A DNA stretch of 20,000 nucleotides from an uncultured virus (IMG/VR IMGVR_UViG_3300027688_000449) (taxonomy: Duplodnaviria > Heunggongvirae > Uroviricota > Caudoviricetes). Shown one piece after another: positions 2 through 20,000 of the stretch. The stretch lies in the IMG/VR virus record IMGVR_UViG_3300027688_000449, one strand, 5' to 3'. The notes beneath the pieces are model-generated. The model saw only the letters and a program-made list of their open reading frames with translations. It did no database searches and was not told the origin of the DNA. The position numbers were made by a program, and so were the translations under genes. Every line of letters begins with the position of its first letter. Position 1 is the stretch's first letter.

Positions 2-3000
2 GGAACATGGTTATTAGAAGTTCCAATGAATTTGGATTATGTAACCACTAATGAATTTGGTGAACAAGTTTTAAGTCCTGACCCAAAAATTGGTATACCA
101 ACTAGAGGAAAATATAGATTTAAAATCAAATATTCACAACCAGCCAACTTTGCAAAAGATGAAGTTAGACGAGCATATTATTTAGTACCAAATATTAAAG
201 AATATGGTTGGGGTACTGCAAATCCATACGATGACCCAATTTATAAACCTGACAGTAATGTGGGTTATCAAGAGTTAATAGGTTCTTATTATTTTGGTTT
301 AGATTGGAGTGGATATACTAACGCACAAGATGCTATTGATTGTAAAGATACATTCTATGAGTTTCAATATAATAAAGTCTATACGGTATCACAATTAATT
401 GATGAATATAAAAAAGGTACTAATAGAAAAAAGTTTATTGGTATTAAAGAAATTACTAATACTGAATGTGAAAGTGAAAATAATAGATTTCCGGCAACAG
501 ATGGGTTAAGACAAAATTTTAGTATAATACCAACCTTAGTGACGTATTTGTTATATACAGCATCATTAACAATTATGATTTTATTACCTATTGTCCATGT
601 GTTAGCATTAATATGGCCAATTATAAGTGTATTATTAAAAGTTGTGTTTGGAACAATTTTGACAATTGTTTCAGTTATTTGTAAAGCGATTAATAAACTG
701 CGTGGTGCTGATAATCAAATAAATTGCCCAAAACCATACAATTTTCAAAATCTTTTTAAAGAATTAACAAATCCATTTAGTAAAATAACATTACCAAATT
801 TAACATATCCTGAATGTCAGTTTTGTGAATGTAAACAAGAACCTGTACCACAAGACAATGATGAGTTAACAGCAATTCAAGAAGCCGCGGCACAAAATTC
901 ATTATCATTAAATGCCGATTTTTTTGTGTATGACAATTGGAATCCAAATCAATCTAATGTAACAGAACACCAAGAAGTTTTTGCGGGTAAAGGATTTAAT
1001 ACTGAAAGTGTTAGAGTCCCAATTAGAAAAAATGATAATAATGATTTTGATTTTATTGATAAATTACCACCATGGGAAATTATCAACAAGTATAATTTAA
1101 AATCAAAATATTTTGATACTGACCCCTACGCTGGTTCAAACAGAATTAAAGTACAAGTAGAACCAAAGTACAATTCAAATACAAATCACTTTGATAATAT
1201 CATGGCGGTATTTGTTGACCCAGATGTTCAAAATACTTTTATTTCGGGGCAACTATTATCTTTCCAAGAGTTGACCAAATCAACTGACCCAAATACAAGT
1301 GGTGCGACTTCAACACCTGAAACAGGGATAACAGGAACAACAAACGTTGGTAAAAGTGTAACGATGACATTTGCCAATCCAACATCACCAAATTTATCAA
1401 ATAGTACTGTAACATATAATTTCCCGACAGTACCAAATGAAACTAAATCTTACAAGTTCCCAACGGACATTGAATATTTCCAAGTTATTACTGGTGTTAC
1501 TTACAATGATTTTGTATCTCAAAACGCGGCATATGCTAAAGGAACTACAACTTGTAACTACCTTAATTATACTGTAACAAATCAAACTACAAATCCAATC
1601 ACCATTAATTATACGGATTACAATGGAACTTCACAAACAGCAACAATTGGTATTGTTGTGGACCAAGACACAAATACAACTTATGGTGCGACTGAAAATA
1701 TATGTGCTTGTGAAAATAGTTTAAGTTCAACAAAAAAATTCAGTATAGATAATATAAATTCTTGTTCAGTTCCAGCACCTGCTGGTTCGGTCTTACCAGG
1801 AAATTTATTAACTCAATTATATCAAAAAATTGAACTTTTTAAAAATGATGGTAAAGACGGTCATGATTTTTATGATTCATATATTGGACAATGGATTGGT
1901 GGTGAAATTAGTTTAGTCTTTATGGTTAGGGGTGTTGACCCACACAGTGGACGTAAATCAATCAAATATGATTTATCAAGAATTTTTGGTTATAGTAGTT
2001 ACGGTCAAAAAGTGATTAGTGGTGATTTTTACATGAACGTTCCCGTCCAACAAGGTTTAAAGACCGTAAGAAATGCAGAATTAACAAGTAACTTACAATC
2101 CAATTCAAATGGATATTTGTATTTCAACTCTTTTCAATACACCGCTGGTACTCAATATAGTGCTTATACCACTACACTTCAAAATTATTATTCAGCATTA
2201 GACCTTAACCGAGTTGATAAATATAAAATCAACTCTGATAATGAGGATAGCTTATTAACAACTGCGATGGTGTATAATGGTGGAAGTGGACAATTGGTTG
2301 CAAACAGTAGTACTGAAGGTTATATACAAGGTGAATATATTGAAGGTGGTTCGTTTATATGGGCAGAAAAGGCTAAGGGATTAAGTAAAATTAAAAAAGA
2401 TAAAAACGGTAATGATAATAATAATACAAGACCGTGGTTATATTTTGCACCATCTTATGGTAATGGAGGACTCGGTAAAATGGTTGTGTATAGTCAAAAA
2501 ATGGTTATGAGGTCAGATAGATTACCTGTTGGTACTATATTTGATGGTAGTGCTAATAACTACTTTGCTTGGCAAGCATCAAACGCATTACCTTATACCT
2601 TTGTCGATGATAATGGTACATCTAATACCCAACTTGTTGTACCATCATTTGATTTTAGTGACCCAACAGCAAATCCTGATTTAGTAACAGGTGCGACATT
2701 TAATGCTATCGCCAATTCATTTACCTGTAATGGTATGGTTGATTTGTCTTGTTATCAAGGTGACGGTAGAAATTTTACTGCATTACCCGCAACCAATGAA
2801 TGTAATACTAATACTAAAAAGGGAGATAAAGTTGTTGTTAAGGGTTGTTACATATTAGTAAACAAACCAATTGGTACCCTCTTTGGTAGGAACAATGATT
2901 ATTCATTAATTATAGAATGGATTGGAAGACTTAGATTAATGATTGCAGTATGTCAAGGAACTTTTTCACATACGTTTGTAAACTCTTGGATAAATGGAAC

Positions 3001-4081
3001 ATTGTTTGCGTTCCCATTCCAAAATGCTGTTAGATTTAATGCTAAGAATGAGCCAATTGTTAGAACAGTTGTTTTAAATAAAGCCTTTTATAATTTTTGT
3101 GCCGATACAATAGTGTACGAACCACAATCTAATAATTTTTATTATCGTTCAAGTCCATGGGATGGTCAAAATTTTATAGGTCAATACCCACCATCAGGAC
3201 TATTTAATTCACCAGTGAATGATAGAAACTTATTATACCCAACTACAATTATGGATTTGGGTCCAAAATTTATTTGGAGTAAAGATGTAAACAAAAGTCC
3301 AAATTACTTTGGATATCAAATGGATAGGTTCAATGCAACATCTTGGAACAATGTGTCTGATTTATTGCAATTATTTATAATATCAAGAATATCAAACTCT
3401 AACCTATTAAAATCAACCAAAACAGGTTTAGACACATCAATTTCTGCATTTTTCAGTAGACCCCAATTAAGGGTTGATGGTGATTATGCTCAGATGTTAC
3501 AAATCAATTCACAGTATGGTATTGTACCATATACTGCGGATAATTATTTTGATGACCCTGCAACAACAACTGACAATGTTGTTTACGTGTCTGTTGATAA
3601 TCAAAAAAATTCGGTATTTGGTATTTTTTATAGTGGGTATACTGAAGAAAGGGATTTAATTTCACCACGTAGAATAGACAGAACATTTACTGGAAATACA
3701 TTAATTGCTGATTATTTAGGAACCAAATCACAAGAAGTTCCATTTTATAGATGGTCAAATACAGCATATATTGATGGTCAACCGTCCATTTTTGGTAACG
3801 AGGAAAACAATTGGTATACAGAAGGTAATGCTTACAAAGAAAAATATCAAAATTTAGATAGAATGTTAAACCCAATGTTCATTGGAGGAAACAATCAAAT
3901 TCAAAACAGAAAAGGTTACATTTACCAAACAAATAGTTTGGGACAATATTCCCAATCACCGGCACTTGGTAATAATAATGAAACTATAACAAGTGCACCA
4001 TGGTATTTTTATTTCGGTTTAAAGAAAGGTTCGTCTGCCATGGATAAATTTACAAAATTATATATTAAATCAGAAGAATGA
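2..4081 (+). CDS. Large putative virion/baseplate-associated protein, 5'-truncated (>1359 aa), with a long hydrophobic segment and Cys motifs
   Basis: The frame is open from base 2 (GTWLLEVP-MNLDY), so the Met at 26 is probably internal. Hydrophobic stretch at 518-691, CxxCxC at 815-832. The TGA overlaps the next ATG (ATGA). Function inferred from context only. Confidence 0.75.
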   Translation, partial: GTWLLEVPMNLDYVTTNEFGEQVLSPDPKIGIPTRGKYRFKIKYSQPANFAKDEVRRAYYLVPNIKEYGWGTANPYDDPIYKPDSNVGYQELIGSYYFGLDWSGYTNAQDAIDCKDTFYEFQYNKVYTVSQLIDEYKKGTNRKKFIGIKEITNTECESENNRFPATDGLRQNFSIIPTLVTYLLYTASLTIMILLPIVHVLALIWPIISVLLKVVFGTILTIVSVICKAINKLRGADNQINCPKPYNFQNLFKELTNPFSKITLPNLTYPECQFCECKQEPVPQDNDELTAIQEAAAQNSLSLNADFFVYDNWNPNQSNVTEHQEVFAGKGFNTESVRVPIRKNDNNDFDFIDKLPPWEIINKYNLKSKYFDTDPYAGSNRIKVQVEPKYNSNTNHFDNIMAVFVDPDVQNTFISGQLLSFQELTKSTDPNTSGATSTPETGITGTTNVGKSVTMTFANPTSPNLSNSTVTYNFPTVPNETKSYKFPTDIEYFQVITGVTYNDFVSQNAAYAKGTTTCNYLNYTVTNQTTNPITINYTDYNGTSQTATIGIVVDQDTNTTYGATENICACENSLSSTKKFSIDNINSCSVPAPAGSVLPGNLLTQLYQKIELFKNDGKDGHDFYDSYIGQWIGGEISLVFMVRGVDPHSGRKSIKYDLSRIFGYSSYGQKVISGDFYMNVPVQQGLKTVRNAELTSNLQSNSNGYLYFNSFQYTAGTQYSAYTTTLQNYYSALDLNRVDKYKINSDNEDSLLTTAMVYNGGSGQLVANSSTEGYIQGEYIEGGSFIWAEKAKGLSKIKKDKNGNDNNNTRPWLYFAPSYGNGGLGKMVVYSQKMVMRSDRLPVGTIFDGSANNYFAWQASNALPYTFVDDNGTSNTQLVVPSFDFSDPTANPDLVTGATFNAIANSFTCNGMVDLSCYQGDGRNFTALPATNECNTNTKKGDKVVVKGCYILVNKPIGTLFGRNNDYSLIIEWIGRLRLMIAVCQGTFSHTFVNSWINGTLFAFPFQNAVRFNAKNEPIVRTVVLNKAFYNFCADTIVYEPQSNNFYYRSSPWDGQNFIGQYPPSGLFNSPVNDRNLLYPTTIMDLGPKFIWSKDVNKSPNYFGYQMDRFNATSWNNVSDLLQLFIISRISNSNLLKSTKTGLDTSISAFFSRPQLRVDGDYAQMLQINSQYGIVPYTADNYFDDPATTTDNVVYVSVDNQKNSVFGIFYSGYTEERDLISPRRIDRTFTGNTLIADYLGTKSQEVPFYRWSNTAYIDGQPSIFGNEENNWYTEGNAYKEKYQNLDRMLNPMFIGGNNQIQNRKGYIYQTNSLGQYSQSPALGNNNETITSAPWYFYFGLKKGSSAMDKFTKLYIKSEE

Positions 4082-11553: not shown

Positions 11554-14154
11554 ATGGCTTGTAGTACTTGTATTAGATGGATGGTTTGGAATGAATCGGA
11601 CAGTGACCAAACATTTTATTATTATGATTGTACTGATGGTACCACATTATTAAGTAATTTATTTGGTGCTGGTCAATTTTATAGTGTTTGTGGTTGTCAA
11701 GCAAGTGGTTCTTATGCAACAAGTGACGATGTTTATATTGAAGATGGTGGAACAGGATATATAAATTATGGAGGATTATTATTACCTCCTTGTGAACCAG
11801 AACCAACACCATCACTTACTTTAACACCATTTCCAACAAGAACCCCAAATCATACACCGACACAAACACCAAGTGTAACACAAACGCCTACAATTACGTC
11901 AACTCCGACTGTAACACCAACAAATACTTTAACACAAACGCCTACAATTACACGAACTCCGACTGTAACACCAACAATTACACAAACTCCGACTATAACA
12001 CCAACAATTACGCCAACGGAACCTCCACTAACTCCAACACCAACATCATCACCATATAACAATGGTAATACATTTGCATATACTTTAACAGTTACAGGTG
12101 CTTGTGAAACAGGATTGGGTTCGGCATTAATTACCGCTAGTGGAGGAACACCACCTTATACATTTGATTGGTATAATCCAAACTTAGGCACCGGTGACTA
12201 CAAAACAAATTTACCTGCAGGAACTTACTATGTTAGAGCAAATGACTCGACAGCACCTACAAATAACGAATTTTATATTAACGTTGTTATTGGTTCAGGG
12301 TTGACAATTGGATTTCAAACTGAAGTTGCAACAACATGTGGTTTAAATAATGGTTCATTGACGGTAACAGCAACATCAAGTTGTAATATTATTAACTATT
12401 ATTTATATTCTGCTTATGGATTTGCTGATTCACAAACAACCTCAACAAATATTGGGACGTTTAATAATTTATCGGCTGGAACTTATTCAGTAACAGCAGT
12501 TGACTGTGCTGGTTGTTCAGGAACTTCTGAGACTTGTATAATATATTCATCAAATACGCTTGATTACGGATTTTATATTGTAAATGACACCGAATGTGCT
12601 AGTCCAACAGGAAAAGTGTATGTTACTGGAGTTACGGGTAACGCTCCGTTTACTTATGAATGGTCTGATGGTATTACAGGAGATACTATTACAGGTCTTA
12701 CAGCTGGTGGTTACGAAGTTACAGTAACATCATCAGATGGTTGTGTATTATCACAAGTGGCTACAGTAGATTATGTCCCAAGTATTGGGTTAGGTTCATG
12801 GACTGCGGTTACACCTTCTTGTTTTGTTGCTGATGGTTCACTTACATTGACTATAACTGGTGGAACTGGGCCTTATTATTATTCAGGTTCAAATGGTACC
12901 GTTGCGATTACTTATGCAACATCATATGTTTTTTCGGGATTATCGGCAGGACCATTCTCAGTAGATATTACTGACGCAGCTTTATGTAAAGCGACATTTT
13001 CAACAGTTTTACAAACGCCAAATACATTTAATAGTTTATCTGTTACTCAAACTAACTCTACTTGTGGTAGTAGTGATGGTAAAATATCAATTACATTAGA
13101 CGGTGGTGAAATTCCATATACATATACATTAGTTTATCCTGATTCATCAACAGTTAATGCGGTTTCAAATTCAACTGCTTATGAGTTCGTTAATTTGGAA
13201 AGTGGAACTTATACAGTTTATGTTTCTGATAGTAGTGGTTGTTTATATGAACAAGAAATAACCATCATAGCCGAAAATCTTTATAGTGTAACAACATCAA
13301 GTTCAGGTTCAACTTGTAATTTAAATAATGGTAGTGTTACACTTACATTATCAACAGGTGGTACCGCACCATATACCTATCAATTAAGTACAGGTCAGTC
13401 CGTTAACACTAGTTTTAGTGCTGCAACGTTTGGTGAATTAGGAACTGGTACTTATGGTTATACGGTGACTGATACAACAGGTTGTGTTCAATCAGGAAAT
13501 GTTACGGTATCATACGGTACACCATTACAATATTCTTTATACCCAACAGGTTGTGGAACTGGTTCAGGTGGTACAATCACGGCATTGATTAGTTCAGGTA
13601 CACCACCATTTACATTTACTTGGTCTGATAATGTTAGTGGTAATCCACCAAATATAACTGTAACAGGTCTTACGGGTGGAACATATAGTTTAACAATAGT
13701 TGATGATAATGGATGTGTTCAAGCAAGAAGTACAATTATAAGTTGTACAGCAATTGAATCAACATATCAAATTTACACAATGTGTGAAAGAGAATTTCAA
13801 TATACTTCAGGGACTGAACGAGGTATTCTTCAAATGTTAAATGAAGGCTATTATGATATTATATCTGGTCACACCAATTGTTTATTAAGTGCGGCAACTT
13901 TTGTTGCTCAAGTGGAAGTTAGTGGTGTAACATATACCGATTCTTTTTATACGGGTACAACATTATTAGACATTCCAACCAATCAACAATGGTATGATGC
14001 GGTTGAAACAATTTTATTGTCAATACCAGGTGTTAGTAGTGTTACAATAGATACGGTATCAAGTGTTGTAACAATAGCCACAGAAGGTGAATTGGCAAAC
14101 CAACAAATTATAATTGACCTAATAATCCAATACGATATTAATTGTGTGAGTTAA
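11554..14154 (+). CDS. Cys-rich adhesin-like virion protein: N-terminal Cys module, Thr-Pro linker, 7 SprB-like repeats, C-terminal domain (866 aa)
   Basis: Repeats of C....GS.T....GGT.PY.Y.W......GL.AG.Y.V.V.D..GC match the Bacteroidota SprB-repeat pattern. About 26 Cys. No N-terminal signal peptide visible. Confidence 0.75.
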   Translation: MACSTCIRWMVWNESDSDQTFYYYDCTDGTTLLSNLFGAGQFYSVCGCQASGSYATSDDVYIEDGGTGYINYGGLLLPPCEPEPTPSLTLTPFPTRTPNHTPTQTPSVTQTPTITSTPTVTPTNTLTQTPTITRTPTVTPTITQTPTITPTITPTEPPLTPTPTSSPYNNGNTFAYTLTVTGACETGLGSALITASGGTPPYTFDWYNPNLGTGDYKTNLPAGTYYVRANDSTAPTNNEFYINVVIGSGLTIGFQTEVATTCGLNNGSLTVTATSSCNIINYYLYSAYGFADSQTTSTNIGTFNNLSAGTYSVTAVDCAGCSGTSETCIIYSSNTLDYGFYIVNDTECASPTGKVYVTGVTGNAPFTYEWSDGITGDTITGLTAGGYEVTVTSSDGCVLSQVATVDYVPSIGLGSWTAVTPSCFVADGSLTLTITGGTGPYYYSGSNGTVAITYATSYVFSGLSAGPFSVDITDAALCKATFSTVLQTPNTFNSLSVTQTNSTCGSSDGKISITLDGGEIPYTYTLVYPDSSTVNAVSNSTAYEFVNLESGTYTVYVSDSSGCLYEQEITIIAENLYSVTTSSSGSTCNLNNGSVTLTLSTGGTAPYTYQLSTGQSVNTSFSAATFGELGTGTYGYTVTDTTGCVQSGNVTVSYGTPLQYSLYPTGCGTGSGGTITALISSGTPPFTFTWSDNVSGNPPNITVTGLTGGTYSLTIVDDNGCVQARSTIISCTAIESTYQIYTMCEREFQYTSGTERGILQMLNEGYYDIISGHTNCLLSAATFVAQVEVSGVTYTDSFYTGTTLLDIPTNQQWYDAVETILLSIPGVSSVTIDTVSSVVTIATEGELANQQIIIDLIIQYDINCVS
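11797..12054 (+). repeat. Thr-Pro-rich low-complexity linker (about 86 aa)
   Basis: PEPTPSLTLTPFPTRTPNHTPTQTPSVTQTPTIT...TPTPTSSP. Confidence 0.9.
12076..13740 (+). repeat. Seven diverged SprB-like beta-sandwich repeats (about 75-85 aa each)
   Basis: Cores include GGTPPYTFDW..NLPAGTYYV, NLSAGTYSVTAVDCAGC, GLTAGGYEVTVTSSDGC, GLSAGPFSVDITDAALC, NLESGTYTVYVSDSSGC, ELGTGTYGYTVTDTTGC and GLTGGTYSLTIVDDNGC. Confidence 0.8.
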
Positions 14155-14549: not shown

Positions 14550-16574
14550 ATGGCGGTAAATTATGAAATTATTGTAGTAAATACGGCAAGCGGTTGTGAT
14601 AACCCTGTCTCGTCACAATACTCAGTTACTGCGTGCTCTCAAAGTGTTATTATAAGATTTGATGGTGTAAATAATGCTGTAGGTCCTTTTGATATTTACA
14701 CAGGAACAACAGGAACAACGGCAGTTTATACAGGTGCTTCAAGGACTGACATGTATAATGGTGTTGAAATTATACTTTCAGACCCTGCGGCTTGTTCAGG
14801 ATTAACACCAACGCCAACACGAACAGTTACACCAACACCAACATTAACGCCAACCAACACTTTAACACCAACATTAACACCAACACCAACCACCACTAAC
14901 GCAGGTGCTCCAACAACACCATCTCCAACACCTACAGTAACACCAACTAATACTGAAACTTTAACACCTACGGTTACACCAAGTGTTACAACAACATCAA
15001 CACCTACAGTAACACCTACGGTTACACCAAGTGTTACAACAACATCAACACCTACAGTAACACCAACAACTTCTCAAACATCAACACCTACAGTAACACC
15101 AACAAATACTGAAACGCCAACTCAGACAGTAACACCTACTAATACACTTACTCCGACTCAGACAGTAACACCTACAAATACTGAAACGCCAACTCAGACA
15201 GTAACACCAACAAATACTGAAACGCCAACTCAGACAGTAACACCAACAAATACTGAAACACCTACTAATACACCAACTCCAACAGTAACACCAACAAATA
15301 CTGAAACGCCAACTCAGACTGTAACACCAACAAATACTTTAACACCAACAAATACTGAAACACCTACTAATACACCAACTCCAACAGTAACACCAACAAA
15401 TACTGAAACGCCAACTCAGACTGTAACACCAACAAATACTTTAACACCAACAAATACTGAAACGCCAACTCAGACTGTAACACCAACAAATACTAAGACA
15501 CCTACACCAACATTAACACCAACAAATACACTTACTCCAACAAATACGCTTACACCAACCAATACAATTACACCAACTAACACAATTACACCTACTAAAA
15601 CTGTAACACCAAGTGTAACACCGACAAAGACAGTTACACCAACGGTAACTCAGACACCAACTAATACAGTAACACCAAGTGTAACAGCAACGGTGACTAA
15701 AACACCTTCTCAAACACCTACTGAAACACCAACAAATACGCCAACGGTAACTCAGACACCAACTAATACGCCAACTAATACACTTACTCCGACAAACACT
15801 GTTACACCTACAAATACTTTAACACCAACACAAACACCAACGGTAACTAATACTCCAACAAATACTAATACACCAACATTGACTGAAACACCGACTAATA
15901 CACCAACAGTTACACAAACACCAACTAATACATTAACTCCAACTAATACATTAACTCCAACTAATACATTAACTCCAACGAAAACACCTACTCCAACACC
16001 TTCTGGCGCGGCATTTAGGGCTTACATATTTGCTGAACCACAAACTAGTGGAGCTGATGCAACTTTATTAGCTTACGCCACAGCAAGTAATGCTCAAGAA
16101 TGGTATAGTTATTTTTCAGTAGGTGGACCACCGAATAATGGAGCAGGAAATTATAGTGGTGATTTAAATATTTACGCACACCAACCTTCGTTTGTAAATG
16201 GTGGTAGTGATTTCGTAACTCCTGTTACTTTAAGCGGACCAATATCACAAATTAATTATTTATTTACTAACATCCAAGTTTCATCTAGTGTTGTAAATCC
16301 AACTTTGTCATATTTTTATTCAATTTGGTTACCTTTAGATGGTATTGGTGGCTCATTAAATAATTATGTTATGGATGTTGGAACATCACCAAGTGCAGAT
16401 GACGTACAGGCGGCAGTACCAAGTTTAGTGCCATCAACAAATGCGTTTAACGTTACTGTTACTTCAGGAGCTGCGGTTCCAAGTGGAACTTATAGAGTTG
16501 TTTGGGTTACACCTAACTTCCTATTGACTGTAGCAACTGGTTCAAATTATTATAACGCAACATCAAAAACATAA
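14550..16574 (+). CDS. Mucin-like stalk protein: 85-aa N-domain, 400-aa (Thr-X)n/TPT repeat, about 190-aa C-terminal globular domain (674 aa)
   Basis: Long ORF with non-repetitive termini flanking the TPTxTx array. No signal peptide visible. Confidence 0.8.
14805..16004 (+). repeat. Coding tandem array of TPTxTx / TPTx units, containing exact 48-bp and 102-bp duplications
   Basis: Thr at alternate positions for about 400 codons. The 48-bp unit starts at 14963 and 15011. The 102-bp unit starts at 15241 and 15343. Confidence 0.92.
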
Positions 16575-16615: not shown

Positions 16616-19600
16616 ATGTCATTTCCTTATAAAAATCCCGTAGCTAATTCCACGTTATCCGCACCCCAAGGTGTGTCATTAACAAGTACGCAAGGAACTA
16701 ATTTTTCAGTTTCTCAAGTTGGGGGATATATGGAGGTTTATTATCTTGAAAATTTAAAGTTAACATTTAGTGGTACAGGGTCTCAAGCGTTATCCGCTAA
16801 TACAATTCCAATTGCTATTGCGGTACAACCTAATACTGGTTTGTCATTCACTCAATTAACTCTTAATTCTGATAATATATCTTCAGGTAGAAGAAGATTA
16901 GGTATGCAAGTCCATGTACAAGAAAATGATACAGTTTATCAATATACTATTCCCAATTACACAGCTTTATGGGATTCGTTATCTGGACTTACAGGTACAT
17001 CAGCAGTAACTCAATCATCTACTTTTACCACCGTAAATGCTCGTTCACAAGCAGGTAGAGATTTCATTGCTGCTTGGACTGGTTCAACAATTGAAGGTGT
17101 TAGTGGTGTTACAAAAAATGATGCTAGATGGCAAATATTTTATGGTTCTGATGTTCAAATTACAGGTGGAACTTATTTTTCAGGAACACAAGAATTAGAT
17201 TTATTTAATAGTACTGGTGGTACTGTTACAATTACAGGATTTACTGGTACTGTCACAGGTGGAACATATAATAGTGGTAATGGCACGCTTACTTTAAACA
17301 ATAGTGATGGTACTTCAGTAGCTGTTACAGGATTCACATCAGGTGGAGGAGGTAATCCACTTACAGTTTATGATGCCACGTCAGGTGTAACGGCAACAAA
17401 CGTTACAGGAATGACTTTTTCAGGTGCTTCAGTTGTTAATAACGGAAGTGGTAATGTAATAATTAATTTTACGGGTGGAACTGCAGGTTCAAGTGGTTCT
17501 TCAGGTTCATCAGGAACATCAGGTATTTCTGGTATAGATGGTTCAAGCGGTTCTTCAGGTTCAAGCGGTTCTTCAGGTTCAAGCGGTTCTTCAGGAACAA
17601 GTGGAGAAAGCGGAACAAGTGGTTCTTCAGGTTCAAGTGGTTCTTCAGGAACAAGTGGTTCATCAGGTTCAAGTGGTTCTTCAGGTTCTTCAGGTTCAAG
17701 TGGTTCAAGTGGTTCTTCAGGAACAAGTGGAGAAAGCGGAACAAGTGGTTCTTCAGGTTCAAGTGGTTCAAGTGGTTCTTCAGGTTCAAGTGGTTCAAGT
17801 GGTTCTTCAGGAACATCAGGAGAATCAGGAACTAGTGGTTCAAGTGGTTCATCAGGTTCAAGCGGTTCTTCAGGTTCTTCAGGAACAAGTGGAGAAAGCG
17901 GAACAAGTGGTTCTTCAGGTTCAAGTGGTTCAAGTGGTTCAAGTGGTTCTTCAGGAACAAGTGGAGAAAGCGGAACAAGTGGTTCTTCAGGTTCAAGTGG
18001 TTCAAGTGGTTCTTCAGGAACATCAGGAGAATCAGGAACTAGTGGTTCAAGCGGTTCTTCAGGTTCAAGTGGTTCTTCAGGTTCTTCAGGAACAAGTGGA
18101 GAAAGCGGAACAAGTGGTTCTTCAGGTTCAAGTGGTTCAAGTGGTTCTTCAGGAACAAGTGGAGAAAGCGGAACAAGTGGTTCATCGGGTTCAAGTGGTT
18201 CATCAGGTTCTTCAGGAACAAGTGGAGAAAGCGGAACAAGTGGTTCATCGGGTTCAAGCGGTTCATCAGGTTCTTCAGGAACAAGTGGAGAAAGCGGAAC
18301 AAGCGGTTCATCAGGTTCAAGTGGTAGTTCAGGTTCTTCAGGAACATCAGGTTCAAGTGGTTCATCAGGTTCAAGTGGTAGTTCAGGTTCTTCAGGAACA
18401 AGTGGTTCATCAGGTTCAAGTGGAGAAAGCGGAACAAGCGGTTCATCAGGTTCAAGTGGTTCTTCAGGTTCTTCAGGAACAAGTGGAGAAAGCGGAACAA
18501 GTGGTTCATCGGGTTCATCAGGTTCTTCAGGAACAAGTGGAGAAAGCGGAACAAGTGGTTCTTCAGGTTCAAGTGGTTCTTCAGGTTCTTCAGGAACATC
18601 AGGAGAATCAGGAACTAGTGGTTCAAGTGGTTCTTCAGGTTCTTCAGGAACATCAGGAGAATCAGGAACTAGCGGAACATCAGGTTCAAGCGGTTCTTCA
18701 GGTTCTTCAGGAACATCAGGAGAATCAGGAACTAGTGGTTCAAGTGGTTCATCAGGTTCAAGCGGTTCTTCAGGTTCTTCAGGAACAAGTGGAGAAAGCG
18801 GAACAAGTGGTTCTTCAGGTTCAAGTGGTTCTTCAGGTTCAAGTGGTTCAAGTGGTTCTTCAGGTTCTTCAGGAACAAGTGGAGAAAGCGGAACAAGTGG
18901 TTCAAGTGGTTCATCAGGTTCTTCAGGAACAAGTGGAGAAAGCGGAACAAGTGGTTCTTCAGGTTCAAGTGGTTCAAGTGGTTCTTCAGGTTCAAGTGGT
19001 TCAAGTGGTTCTTCAGGTTCTTCAGGAACATCAGGAGAATCAGGAACTAGCGGAACATCAGGTTCAAGCGGTTCTTCAGGTTCCTCAGGAACAAGTGGAG
19101 AAAGCGGAACAAGTGGTTCTTCAGGTTCAAGTGGTTCAAGTGGTTCAAGTGGTTCATCAGGTTCTTCAGGAACATCAGGTATAGACGGAACATCAGGTTC
19201 TTCAGGTTCAAGCGGTTCATCAGGAACTAGCGGAACATCAGGTTCTTCAGGTTCAAGTGGTTCTTCAGGAACATCAGGTTCTTCAGGTTCAAGTGGTTCT
19301 TCAGGAACATCAGGTTCTTCAGGTTCAAGTGGTTCTTCAGGTTCATCAGGTTCATCAGGAACATCAGGTATAGACGGAACATCAGGTTCTTCAGGTTCAA
19401 GTGGTAGCTCAGGTTCTTCAGGAACTAGCGGAACATCAGGTTCAAGTGGTTCTTCAGGAACTAGCGGAACATCAGGTTCAAGTGGAGAAAGCGGAACAAG
19501 CGGTTCATCAGGTTCAAGTGGTTCTTCAGGAACTAGTGGGACATCAGGTTCAAGTGGAGAAAGCGGAACAAGCGGTTCATCAGGTTCAAGTGGTAGCTCA

Positions 19601-20000
19601 GGTTCTTCAGGAACATCAGGTTCAAGTGGTAGCTCAGGTTCTTCAGGAACTAGCGGAACATCAGGTTCAAGTGGTAGCTCAGGTTCTTCAGGAACATCAG
19701 GTTCAAGTGGAGAAAGCGGAACAAGCGGTTCATCAGGTTCAAGTGGTAGCTCAGGTTCTTCAGGAACATCAGGTTCAAGTGGAGAAAGCGGAACAAGCGG
19801 TTCATCAGGTTCAAGTGGTTCTTCAGGAACTAGCGGAACATCAGGTTCAAGTGGTAGCTCAGGTTCTTCAGGAACATCAGGTTCAAGTGGAGAAAGCGGA
19901 ACAAGCGGTTCATCAGGTTCAAGTGGTTCTTCAGGAACTAGCGGAACATCAGGTTCAAGTGGTAGCTCAGGTTCTTCAGGAACTAGTGGGACATCAGGTT
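16616..20000 (+). CDS. Collagen-like (Gly-X-Ser)n fibre protein, 3'-truncated (>1128 aa); absent from the supplied ORF track
   Basis: Manual translation from ATG 16616 gives MSFPYKNPVANSTLSAPQG...SSGRRRLGMQVHVQENDTVYQ...NVIINFTG-GTAGSSGSSGSSGTSGISGIDGSS... with no stop before base 20000. It was probably omitted from the track because it has no stop in the window. Confidence 0.92.
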   Translation, partial: MSFPYKNPVANSTLSAPQGVSLTSTQGTNFSVSQVGGYMEVYYLENLKLTFSGTGSQALSANTIPIAIAVQPNTGLSFTQLTLNSDNISSGRRRLGMQVHVQENDTVYQYTIPNYTALWDSLSGLTGTSAVTQSSTFTTVNARSQAGRDFIAAWTGSTIEGVSGVTKNDARWQIFYGSDVQITGGTYFSGTQELDLFNSTGGTVTITGFTGTVTGGTYNSGNGTLTLNNSDGTSVAVTGFTSGGGGNPLTVYDATSGVTATNVTGMTFSGASVVNNGSGNVIINFTGGTAGSSGSSGSSGTSGISGIDGSSGSSGSSGSSGSSGSSGTSGESGTSGSSGSSGSSGTSGSSGSSGSSGSSGSSGSSGSSGTSGESGTSGSSGSSGSSGSSGSSGSSGSSGTSGESGTSGSSGSSGSSGSSGSSGTSGESGTSGSSGSSGSSGSSGSSGTSGESGTSGSSGSSGSSGSSGTSGESGTSGSSGSSGSSGSSGSSGTSGESGTSGSSGSSGSSGSSGTSGESGTSGSSGSSGSSGSSGTSGESGTSGSSGSSGSSGSSGTSGESGTSGSSGSSGSSGSSGTSGSSGSSGSSGSSGSSGTSGSSGSSGESGTSGSSGSSGSSGSSGTSGESGTSGSSGSSGSSGTSGESGTSGSSGSSGSSGSSGTSGESGTSGSSGSSGSSGTSGESGTSGTSGSSGSSGSSGTSGESGTSGSSGSSGSSGSSGSSGTSGESGTSGSSGSSGSSGSSGSSGSSGSSGTSGESGTSGSSGSSGSSGTSGESGTSGSSGSSGSSGSSGSSGSSGSSGSSGTSGESGTSGTSGSSGSSGSSGTSGESGTSGSSGSSGSSGSSGSSGSSGTSGIDGTSGSSGSSGSSGTSGTSGSSGSSGSSGTSGSSGSSGSSGTSGSSGSSGSSGSSGSSGTSGIDGTSGSSGSSGSSGSSGTSGTSGSSGSSGTSGTSGSSGESGTSGSSGSSGSSGTSGTSGSSGESGTSGSSGSSGSSGSSGTSGSSGSSGSSGTSGTSGSSGSSGSSGTSGSSGESGTSGSSGSSGSSGSSGTSGSSGESGTSGSSGSSGSSGTSGTSGSSGSSGSSGTSGSSGESGTSGSSGSSGSSGTSGTSGSSGSSGSSGTSGTSG
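17477..20000 (+). repeat. 9-bp-unit coding array of about 280 Gly-X-Y triplets (GSS, GTS, GES; rare GIS/GID/GTA)
   Basis: Gly codons at 17477, 17531, 19178, 19367 and 19988 are all separated by multiples of 9. Units include GGTTCAAGT, GGTTCTTCA, GGAACAAGT, GGAGAAAGC and GGAACATCA. Confidence 0.95.

Follow-up and report, generated by a model that had tools for sequence, protein, structure and literature searches.

A Gly-X-Ser collagen-like array in a predicted tail fibre of a freshwater T4-like phage, and candidate TibC-family enzymes for its glycosylation

How could a collagen-like protein hold together if it is built almost wholly of glycine, serine and threonine, and what would a phage do with it? 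The question is raised by one end of a 20,000-nucleotide stretch of DNA from an uncultured tailed virus (IMG/VR IMGVR_UViG_3300027688_000449; the whole stretch is called the window here), which is held in a 72,634-bp contig (G000) such that the window edge is also the contig end. An open reading frame (ORF) on the plus strand, hereafter the fibre ORF, extends from 16616 to 19999 (1128 aa) with no stop up to that end. An earlier note, made from the sequence alone, had described it as a 287-aa head followed by about 280 in-register Gly-X-Y triplets that run off the window edge, and both the ORF and the triplet count were as claimed: the head comprises residues 1-287 and the array residues 288-1127, with Gly at every third residue in 280 of 280 triplets.

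16616..17476, plus strand: N-terminal head of the fibre ORF, 287 aa, a conserved module with no Pfam or PHROG family; 40 full-head loci in IMG/VR
17477..19996, plus strand: fibre array of 280 Gly-(Ser/Thr/Glu)-Ser triplets without interruption, still open where the contig ends

The array is made of GSS (171 triplets), GTS (78), GES (26), GID (3), GTA (1) and GIS (1), such that X is mostly Ser, Thr or Glu and Y is Ser in 276 of 280, in agreement with the note. A residue count confirmed the reported absence of Pro, Lys and Arg (zero of each in the 280 triplets), there was no Thr at Y, and none of the typical stabilisers of prokaryotic collagens (Pro at X, charged pairs, Thr at Y) was seen in the window array. 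Outside the array the longest G-X-Y run in the contig, across six frames, was 5, and 1000 residue shuffles of the array gave runs of 11 at most. The Pfam Collagen model (PF01391), a search that the note had proposed, matched the fibre ORF at 392 bits (cut-off 27.2), and the PHROG matches were collagen-like tail fibres, through the repeat part only. The array is composed of 20 nine-base units, and its Ser codons are drawn from both the TCN and AGY sets, which points to selection at the protein level. We regard it as virtually certain that the fibre ORF is a real gene. We did not take the antisense or shifted frames of the array for genes, as they are shadows of the repeat; the same kind of shadow frame is what annotators called in the deposited isolate Mel-JY01, discussed below.

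17368..19998, minus strand: antisense open frame of Pro/Glu/Val/Leu/Asp repeats, a shadow of the repeat

To judge the length of the array, the window was compared with a sister genome record, G001 (294,914 bp, 98% complete), which has no mismatches to it across the 17,476 nt preceding the array. The G001 array equals that of the window minus an in-frame 900 nt (100 triplets) situated between two 131-nt exact repeats. Since the longest exact repeat within the window array is only 145 nt, the 2.5 kb of the array is not itself a duplicated stretch.

17801-17931 and 18701-18831 (span 17801..18831), no strand: two 131-nt exact repeats flanking the 900 nt absent from G001
19731..19983, no strand: pair of 145-nt exact repeats with a period of 108 nt, close to the end of the contig

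The shorter array of G001 is a collapse or deletion allele, the extra sequence of the window is not a duplication, and the array is not an expansion artefact. The 145-nt pair is the likely cause of the assembly stop at the contig end.

A probable C-terminal part of the protein was found at the other contig end of G001, on the same strand, where a 5'-open ORF of 654 aa comprises, in order, 15 GSS/GTS triplets, a short break, 143 Pro-rich triplets (GAQ, GPQ, GAV, GPL, GAT, GPT) and a Peptidase_S74 tip (PF13884, 58.8 bits). G001 has a single head, and 18 of its 19 Collagen matches were listed, all 18 within the two contig-end ORFs; the end piece recurs in a second assembly (G009), and G006 (317 kb, 100% complete) is broken in the same manner. 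Judged from the sequences, the head ORF and the 654-aa ORF are probably parts of a single gene, with no fewer than 1782 aa and 438 triplets, which would span about 375 nm. With 143 Pro-rich triplets in the C-terminal piece, the "giant proline-free" gene of the earlier note stands for the N-terminal Ser arm and probably not for the whole protein. Among 28 distinct C-terminally complete Ser-type ORFs, 11 match the tip of the 654-aa ORF (itself included) and five have another tip in common, and S74 was confirmed in eight of the ten tips scanned (eight chosen as blast matches, two not). The S74 domain helps oligomerisation and cleaves itself (PMC12143355; here and below, published sources are cited from excerpts of their text). 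The probable C-terminal piece and many relatives resemble the tail fibres with an S74 intramolecular chaperone (PF13884; PMC12143355) in the C-terminal placing of S74, and differ in the shaft, which is triple-beta there and Gly-X-Y here; the excerpt of that fibre atlas does not mention collagen. Separately, G006 has a tandem run of three genes for GAQ/GPT/GPQ collagen fibres whose tails are S74-like (L162:5378-12154), in addition to a Ser-type fibre.

The fibre gene is located downstream of the sheath, gp25 and baseplate-J genes, on the same strand and at the end of the baseplate/tail block, and we consider its product very probably a trimeric tail fibre. Its head is the likely virion-attachment end, with two parts that can be told apart:

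16736..17140, plus strand: folded core of the head, approximately residues 41-175; AlphaFold2 (AF2) monomer with a predicted local distance difference test score (pLDDT) mostly of 88-96
17360..17476, plus strand: small knob module immediately before the array; L041-L046 match this stretch alone

Head matches were found in 46 viral loci in IMG/VR, 40 of them across most of the head length. All 40 continue into GTS/GSS/GTD/GID arrays and 38 break there; the two closed loci encode 2733 aa each, with 369 + 336 triplets. Relatives reach 984 triplets in 3325+ aa, and another has 621 triplets unbroken, arrays of 0.5-0.8 micrometres when computed at the collagen triple-helix rise of 0.286 nm per residue. 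Globular inserts differ among the relatives, and the knob module was found again between the arrays of other fibre proteins. The wider head family forms 381 clusters at 50% identity, some of whose members terminate in S74; among the best 150 clusters, 142 had no Gly-X-Y array at all and seven had a Ser-type array, from which we conclude that the Ser stalk swaps for other fibre shafts behind a common head.

The AF2 monomer model, built from 94 sequences, folded head residues 41-175 confidently and left the triplets at pLDDT under 50 (a first head model from 24 sequences, at pLDDT 44, was discarded). The fold search of the head model in the PDB gave nothing at E <= 0.001, and in BFVD the sole match was an uncharacterised homologue (A0A6J5L6I5). 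In VIA fold comparisons the head core scored Z 4.0 against 3n3f, the collagen XV trimerisation domain (root-mean-square deviation 3.9, 53 aligned), and Z 3.1 against 1yu0, both below the tool background, so that a resemblance of the predicted core to a small trimerisation domain of the collagen XV/XVIII or Mtd_N type, or to small tailspike N-domains, is only a hint. There were no candidates with PF20010 or PF18454 for the core, and no named family for the head in PDB sequences, INPHARED, Pfam (94 members), PHROG (head alone) or the ESM Atlas, where the best match (0.91) was an unnamed viral cluster. Contigs from RNA libraries span part of the head (X17: 16649-17284, 99%+ alike, low depth); DNA carry-over is possible, and they were not counted as expression. 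Head matches in four contigs of metagenome-assembled genomes (3-7 kb; labelled Thiobacillus, Flavobacterium and Bacteroidetes) are likely binned phage pieces and were not used for a host call.

What could stabilise the Ser arm? Behind the tip in G001 is an island of genes for 2OG-Fe(II) oxygenases, GT2s, methyltransferases, and nucleotidyl- and aminotransferases, which was covered by 3 of 3 DNA runs with zero differing letters. About 8 kb from the tip are two TibC/Aah-like genes, a GT4-fused copy that scores above the TIGR04414 cut-off of 200 (229.8 bits) and a stand-alone copy just below it (193.5 bits). In an alignment to TibC (4rap), both retain Asp110, Thr226, Lys230 and the four iron-finger Cys, which in TibC serve as the catalytic Asp, the donor-pocket Thr and Lys, and the four-Cys iron finger (PMC4358343). 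TibC acts on Ser and not on Thr, peptides included, and its natural substrate is a beta-helix (PMC4358343). The phage genes are thus akin to the bacterial autotransporter heptosyltransferase (BAHT) systems TibC-TibA and Aah-AIDA-I (TIGR04414; PMC4358343) in enzyme family and catalytic residues, the known system being Ser-specific, and in that the enzyme gene is beside a gene for a Ser-rich surface fibre. They differ in being phage-encoded and GT4-fused and in lacking an autotransporter (of the island proteins of G001 and their neighbours, 28 were scanned and none matched an autotransporter family); the proposed substrate would be a Gly-X-Ser repeat rather than a beta-helix.

The enzyme gene directly adjoins a fibre gene in L010/L011, L060 and L071, and the pairing was also seen in G008, Mel-JY01 and LR756501. 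With the G001 enzyme as query, a Ser-type stretch was present in 10 of 18 loci, two of which are the phage of the window. An alignment query found TibC/Aah-family matches, often GT4-fused, in about 2000 viral stretches, and co-occurrence was counted in the best 80 of these, within the fetched DNA, with 77 loci of a control gene for comparison. A Ser array was present in 16 of the 80 TibC-like loci, Pro-type collagen only in 10 and neither in 54; for the control gene, two of 77 loci had a Ser array and none of 77 had Pro-type collagen only. The enrichment of Ser arrays gave a Fisher p of 0.0007, with the proviso that the loci are kin and the counts not independent; the enzymes from loci with a Ser array are 47-100% alike, with a median of 57%. 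G008, whose genes recur in three of the Pro-only loci, has in addition a 716-triplet GTS/GSS fibre a little further on. INPHARED holds the enzyme in four records (three genomes), and in Mel-JY01 and LR756501 GTS/GSS arrays are no more than about 2 kb away from the enzyme gene or the gene pair that it belongs to. TIGR04414 matched in none of the 26 records reached through head or knob matches, which is uninformative, these being 7-31% complete and nearly all ending in the array, and its absence from G003 and G004 is uninformative as well.

Several further loci are recorded here as observations in their own right. Directly behind the Pro-rich collagen end in G001 (L054:12159-17067) are genes for 2OG-Fe(II) oxygenases (one fused to GT2), DUF6445 and GT2; possibly these act in prolyl hydroxylation or glycosylation, although Pro is mostly at X. 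G008, a 170-kb phage without the head module, encodes a 2645-aa GTS/GSS fibre and then two GPI/GPQ collagens (L160:2346-16875). In a different phage type (L072-L074), a TibC-like fusion is flanked on one side by a GSS/GTS ORF and on the other by a GAQ/GSQ/GNQ collagen that is rich in Gln, has almost no Pro and is interrupted regularly by 2-residue breaks. G005 has sulfotransferase, APS kinase and cytidylyltransferase-like genes (L057:7387-10791) behind its 585-triplet GSS/GTS fibre, and these might serve in sulfation of the fibre or its glycans.

The chemistry of the triplets was examined by pooling 87 Ser-type runs (12,182 triplets, redundant and kin). At X, Thr accounted for 49% and Ser for 41%, with Ala in 200 triplets and Pro in 0 of 12,182; at Y, Ser accounted for 84% and Asp for 10%; Lys and Arg were nearly absent. 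A Pro codon is one base change from Ser or Thr codons. Pro is the usual stabiliser at X (PMC3368898) and salt bridges are the other (PMC11923368), and the lack of both suggests selection for hydroxyls. A precedent is (Gly-Pro-Thr)10, which is a coil until galactosylated and then folds (PMC11923368), and BclA is glycosylated (PMC8968730). As in Riftia cuticle collagen and Bacillus BclA (cited in PMC11923368 and PMC8968730), a hydroxy amino acid at Y would replace hydroxyproline and O-glycan stabilisation is proposed; those collagens use Gly-Pro-Thr or Thr at Y, whereas here Y is Ser, X is Ser or Thr, and Pro is excluded from X. The closest phage parallels, the E. coli O157:H7 prophage tail-fibre proteins EPclA and EPclB (PMC3368898), are alike in their globular ends, Gly-X-Y stalk, C-terminal trimerising domain and tail-fibre context. 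In contrast to the Ser arm, which has at least 280 triplets, the EPcl stalks are short, with Pro at about half of X and charged pairs, and the head here matches no family in the libraries. Collagen fibres of phages, glyco-Thr collagens and BAHT enzymes are all familiar one by one; among the matches listed in searches of the open-licence PMC and bioRxiv literature we found no paper on a Gly-X-Ser phage collagen or on phage TibC homologues, and the main text of two huge-phage papers mentions neither collagen nor heptosyltransferase. Plasmodium MSP1 block 2 is a natural GTS repeat, on the structure of which the paper, as excerpted, has no word.

The reading that we put first, at a little short of even confidence, is that of a trimeric tail fibre whose Ser triple helix is stabilised by O-glycans added by the phage and which is anchored by its head. 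The head would anchor the fibre at the baseplate; folding would begin at the C-terminal S74 trimer and zip through the Pro-rich collagen into the Ser arm; the GT4-TibC fusion and the stand-alone TibC-like enzyme would put sugars on Ser; and the O-glycans would hold the triple helix of the Ser arm, giving a long thread that may let the phage catch hosts over a wider radius in dilute lake water. Taken singly, we lean towards the Ser arm forming a triple helix, and to the same degree towards the fibre being glycosylated by phage enzymes; that the TibC-like enzymes would be the ones responsible is a more tentative proposal. The very long virion fibre with a glycosylation stabiliser suggested by the earlier note gains circumstantial ground from the S74 at the probable C-terminus, the position in the baseplate/tail block and the TibC/Aah-type enzymes in the same phage, and is a prediction throughout.

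A number of points weigh against this reading. Ser is a poor triple-helix former, and in the glyco-Thr precedent X is Pro and Y is Thr, such that its transfer to Gly-Ser/Thr-Ser is by analogy. The two gene halves do not overlap (no common 40-mer) and relatives (L091, L122, L142, L152) have tandem pairs of Ser-type fibre genes, so that the gap could conceal a gene boundary; 17 of the 28 tips are not S74-like. With respect to the enzymes, 64 of the 80 TibC-like loci had no Ser array in the fetched DNA (22 of 32 for loci of at least 15 kb), the 10 with only Pro-type collagens have been noted above, LR756504 has no GTS/GSS array within 20 kb of the enzyme gene, and the GmhA heptose gene was found in none of five phage records. 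There are also many other glycosyltransferases near the fibre locus, and a candidate rival substrate for glycosylation is immediately upstream of it:

14550..16574, plus strand: Thr/Pro-rich mucin-like protein, 674 aa, upstream of the fibre; stalk with 192 Thr and 77 Pro in 397 aa

A similar Thr/Pro mucin-like gene, of 325-859 aa, precedes the head in 40 of 40 loci.

The alternative that survives best, which we nevertheless judge unlikely, is that a trimeric head is linked to a trimeric tip by three Gly/Ser/Thr chains that stay flexible and unwound, perhaps carry sugars and act as an entropic tether, with the register kept only by expansion of a 9-nt repeat. Gly/Ser repeats are standard flexible linkers, the array is made of nine-base units and varies by whole blocks, the arrays of L060 and L071 have many 2-residue register breaks, and the low pLDDT of the triplets would fit, though any collagen monomer would give it. 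Such a tether is difficult to reconcile with 280, 585, 588 and 621 triplets that lack a single register break despite synonymous codon diversity, with the position-specific difference between X and Y, or with the in-frame passage of Ser triplets into ordinary Pro collagen in G001 and Mel-JY01. Less probable again is a sugar-free triple helix stabilised at lake temperature by its length, clamped ends and water bridges, with the TibC-like enzymes acting elsewhere (the Thr/Pro mucin, beta-repeat fibres, the capsid or host glycans). That would agree with the spread of TibC-like genes, mostly with no Ser array in view among the best 80, with the other substrates nearby, and with the stabilisation of bacterial collagens by polar hydration networks (PMC8968730), but having no Pro at X and almost no Lys or Arg removes both known sugar-free stabilisers (PMC11923368, PMC3368898). 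Enzyme and array being neighbours in several lineages also speaks against it. Folding back of each chain as a polyglycine-II bundle like snow-flea antifreeze protein, an option raised in the earlier note, is very improbable: Gly at every third residue and small polar X and Y residues would suit it, but such bundles consist of short Gly-X-X segments with turns between, and here 280-621 triplets run without turns and related arrays terminate in trimer chaperones. That faulty assembly or a non-coding repeat accounts for the array is scarcely credible, since against the shorter sister array and the 38 of 40 full-head loci broken within it stand the non-duplicate 900 nt, the in-frame passage of all 40 heads into such arrays and the closed ends of the two 2733-aa ORFs.

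Sugar-stabilised fibres of the kind proposed may be accessible in Mel-JY01 (PP395634.1), which has an unannotated 202-triplet GTS/GSS ORF at 2-3052 on the plus strand (L171), where antisense frames were called instead. This ORF probably continues from the other end of the record, to 1771 aa by length. Its GT4-TibC protein matches TIGR04414 at 317 bits, and the head module is absent. A second short array gene (L171:9152-9986) appears frameshifted. The kinship of the Mel-JY01 capsid with Flavobacterium phages casts doubt on its stated cyanobacterial host, Microcystis elabens; we found no publication on this isolate in the literature.

With regard to the phage itself, G000 encodes a tail sheath, gp25, baseplate-J, gp32, PolB and a sugar-enzyme cluster (52 proteins scanned), and the sister genome, which does not differ from it outside the array, belongs to a T4-like myophage of ~295 kb. 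G001 carries a gp23-type capsid whose nearest INPHARED relatives, 36-44% identical, are LR756508, Mel-JY01, Flavobacterium phage immuto and Rhodothermus RM378; Bacteroidota as the host is a guess. At least half of the words were contained in 14 of the 24 listed sequencing runs, all of them freshwater, lake or crustacean metagenomes that were flagged as possible sources. On the two points compared, size and habitat, the phage is like the moraphages, freshwater T4-like myophages of 200-307 kb with core glycosyltransferases (PMC12619734); the excerpted main text of that paper is silent on collagen and heptosyltransferases, and DnaK, present in some moraphages, was found in none of five phage records. 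The structural block of the window also contains a further repeat protein:

11554..14154, plus strand: SprB-repeat protein, 866 aa, same structural block; Pfam SprB 101.9 bits

The left end of G000 has a second sugar-enzyme cluster (L047:54-11950: class II aldolase, EcbF/BcbF phosphatase, Fringe-like GT, epimerase, WcbI, NTP transferase, HtrL-like) and an Fe/Mn superoxide dismutase gene (L047:16656-18200).

More speculatively than for this fibre alone, aquatic phages may widely make a "glyco-serine collagen", Gly-X-Ser helices of 0.2-0.8 micrometres that would fold only after TibC-family enzymes have coated their serines. Such genes are routinely lost from view, as assemblies break within them and annotators call the antisense frame, and the deposited isolate Mel-JY01, having both array and enzyme, makes virions open to examination. 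Whether glycosylation precedes or follows triple-helix folding is called unknown in PMC11923368, and the question would become testable if the Ser helix is real, with one chain that probably carries both Pro collagen and Ser collagen as a built-in control. A real Ser helix would break the rule by which collagens depend on imino acids or charge pairs, and glyco-serine collagen, if true, would add a third way of stabilising a triple helix to the two provided by hydroxyproline and salt bridges, and would give the autotransporter glycosyltransferase family a viral role, here on a chain fused to ordinary Pro collagen.

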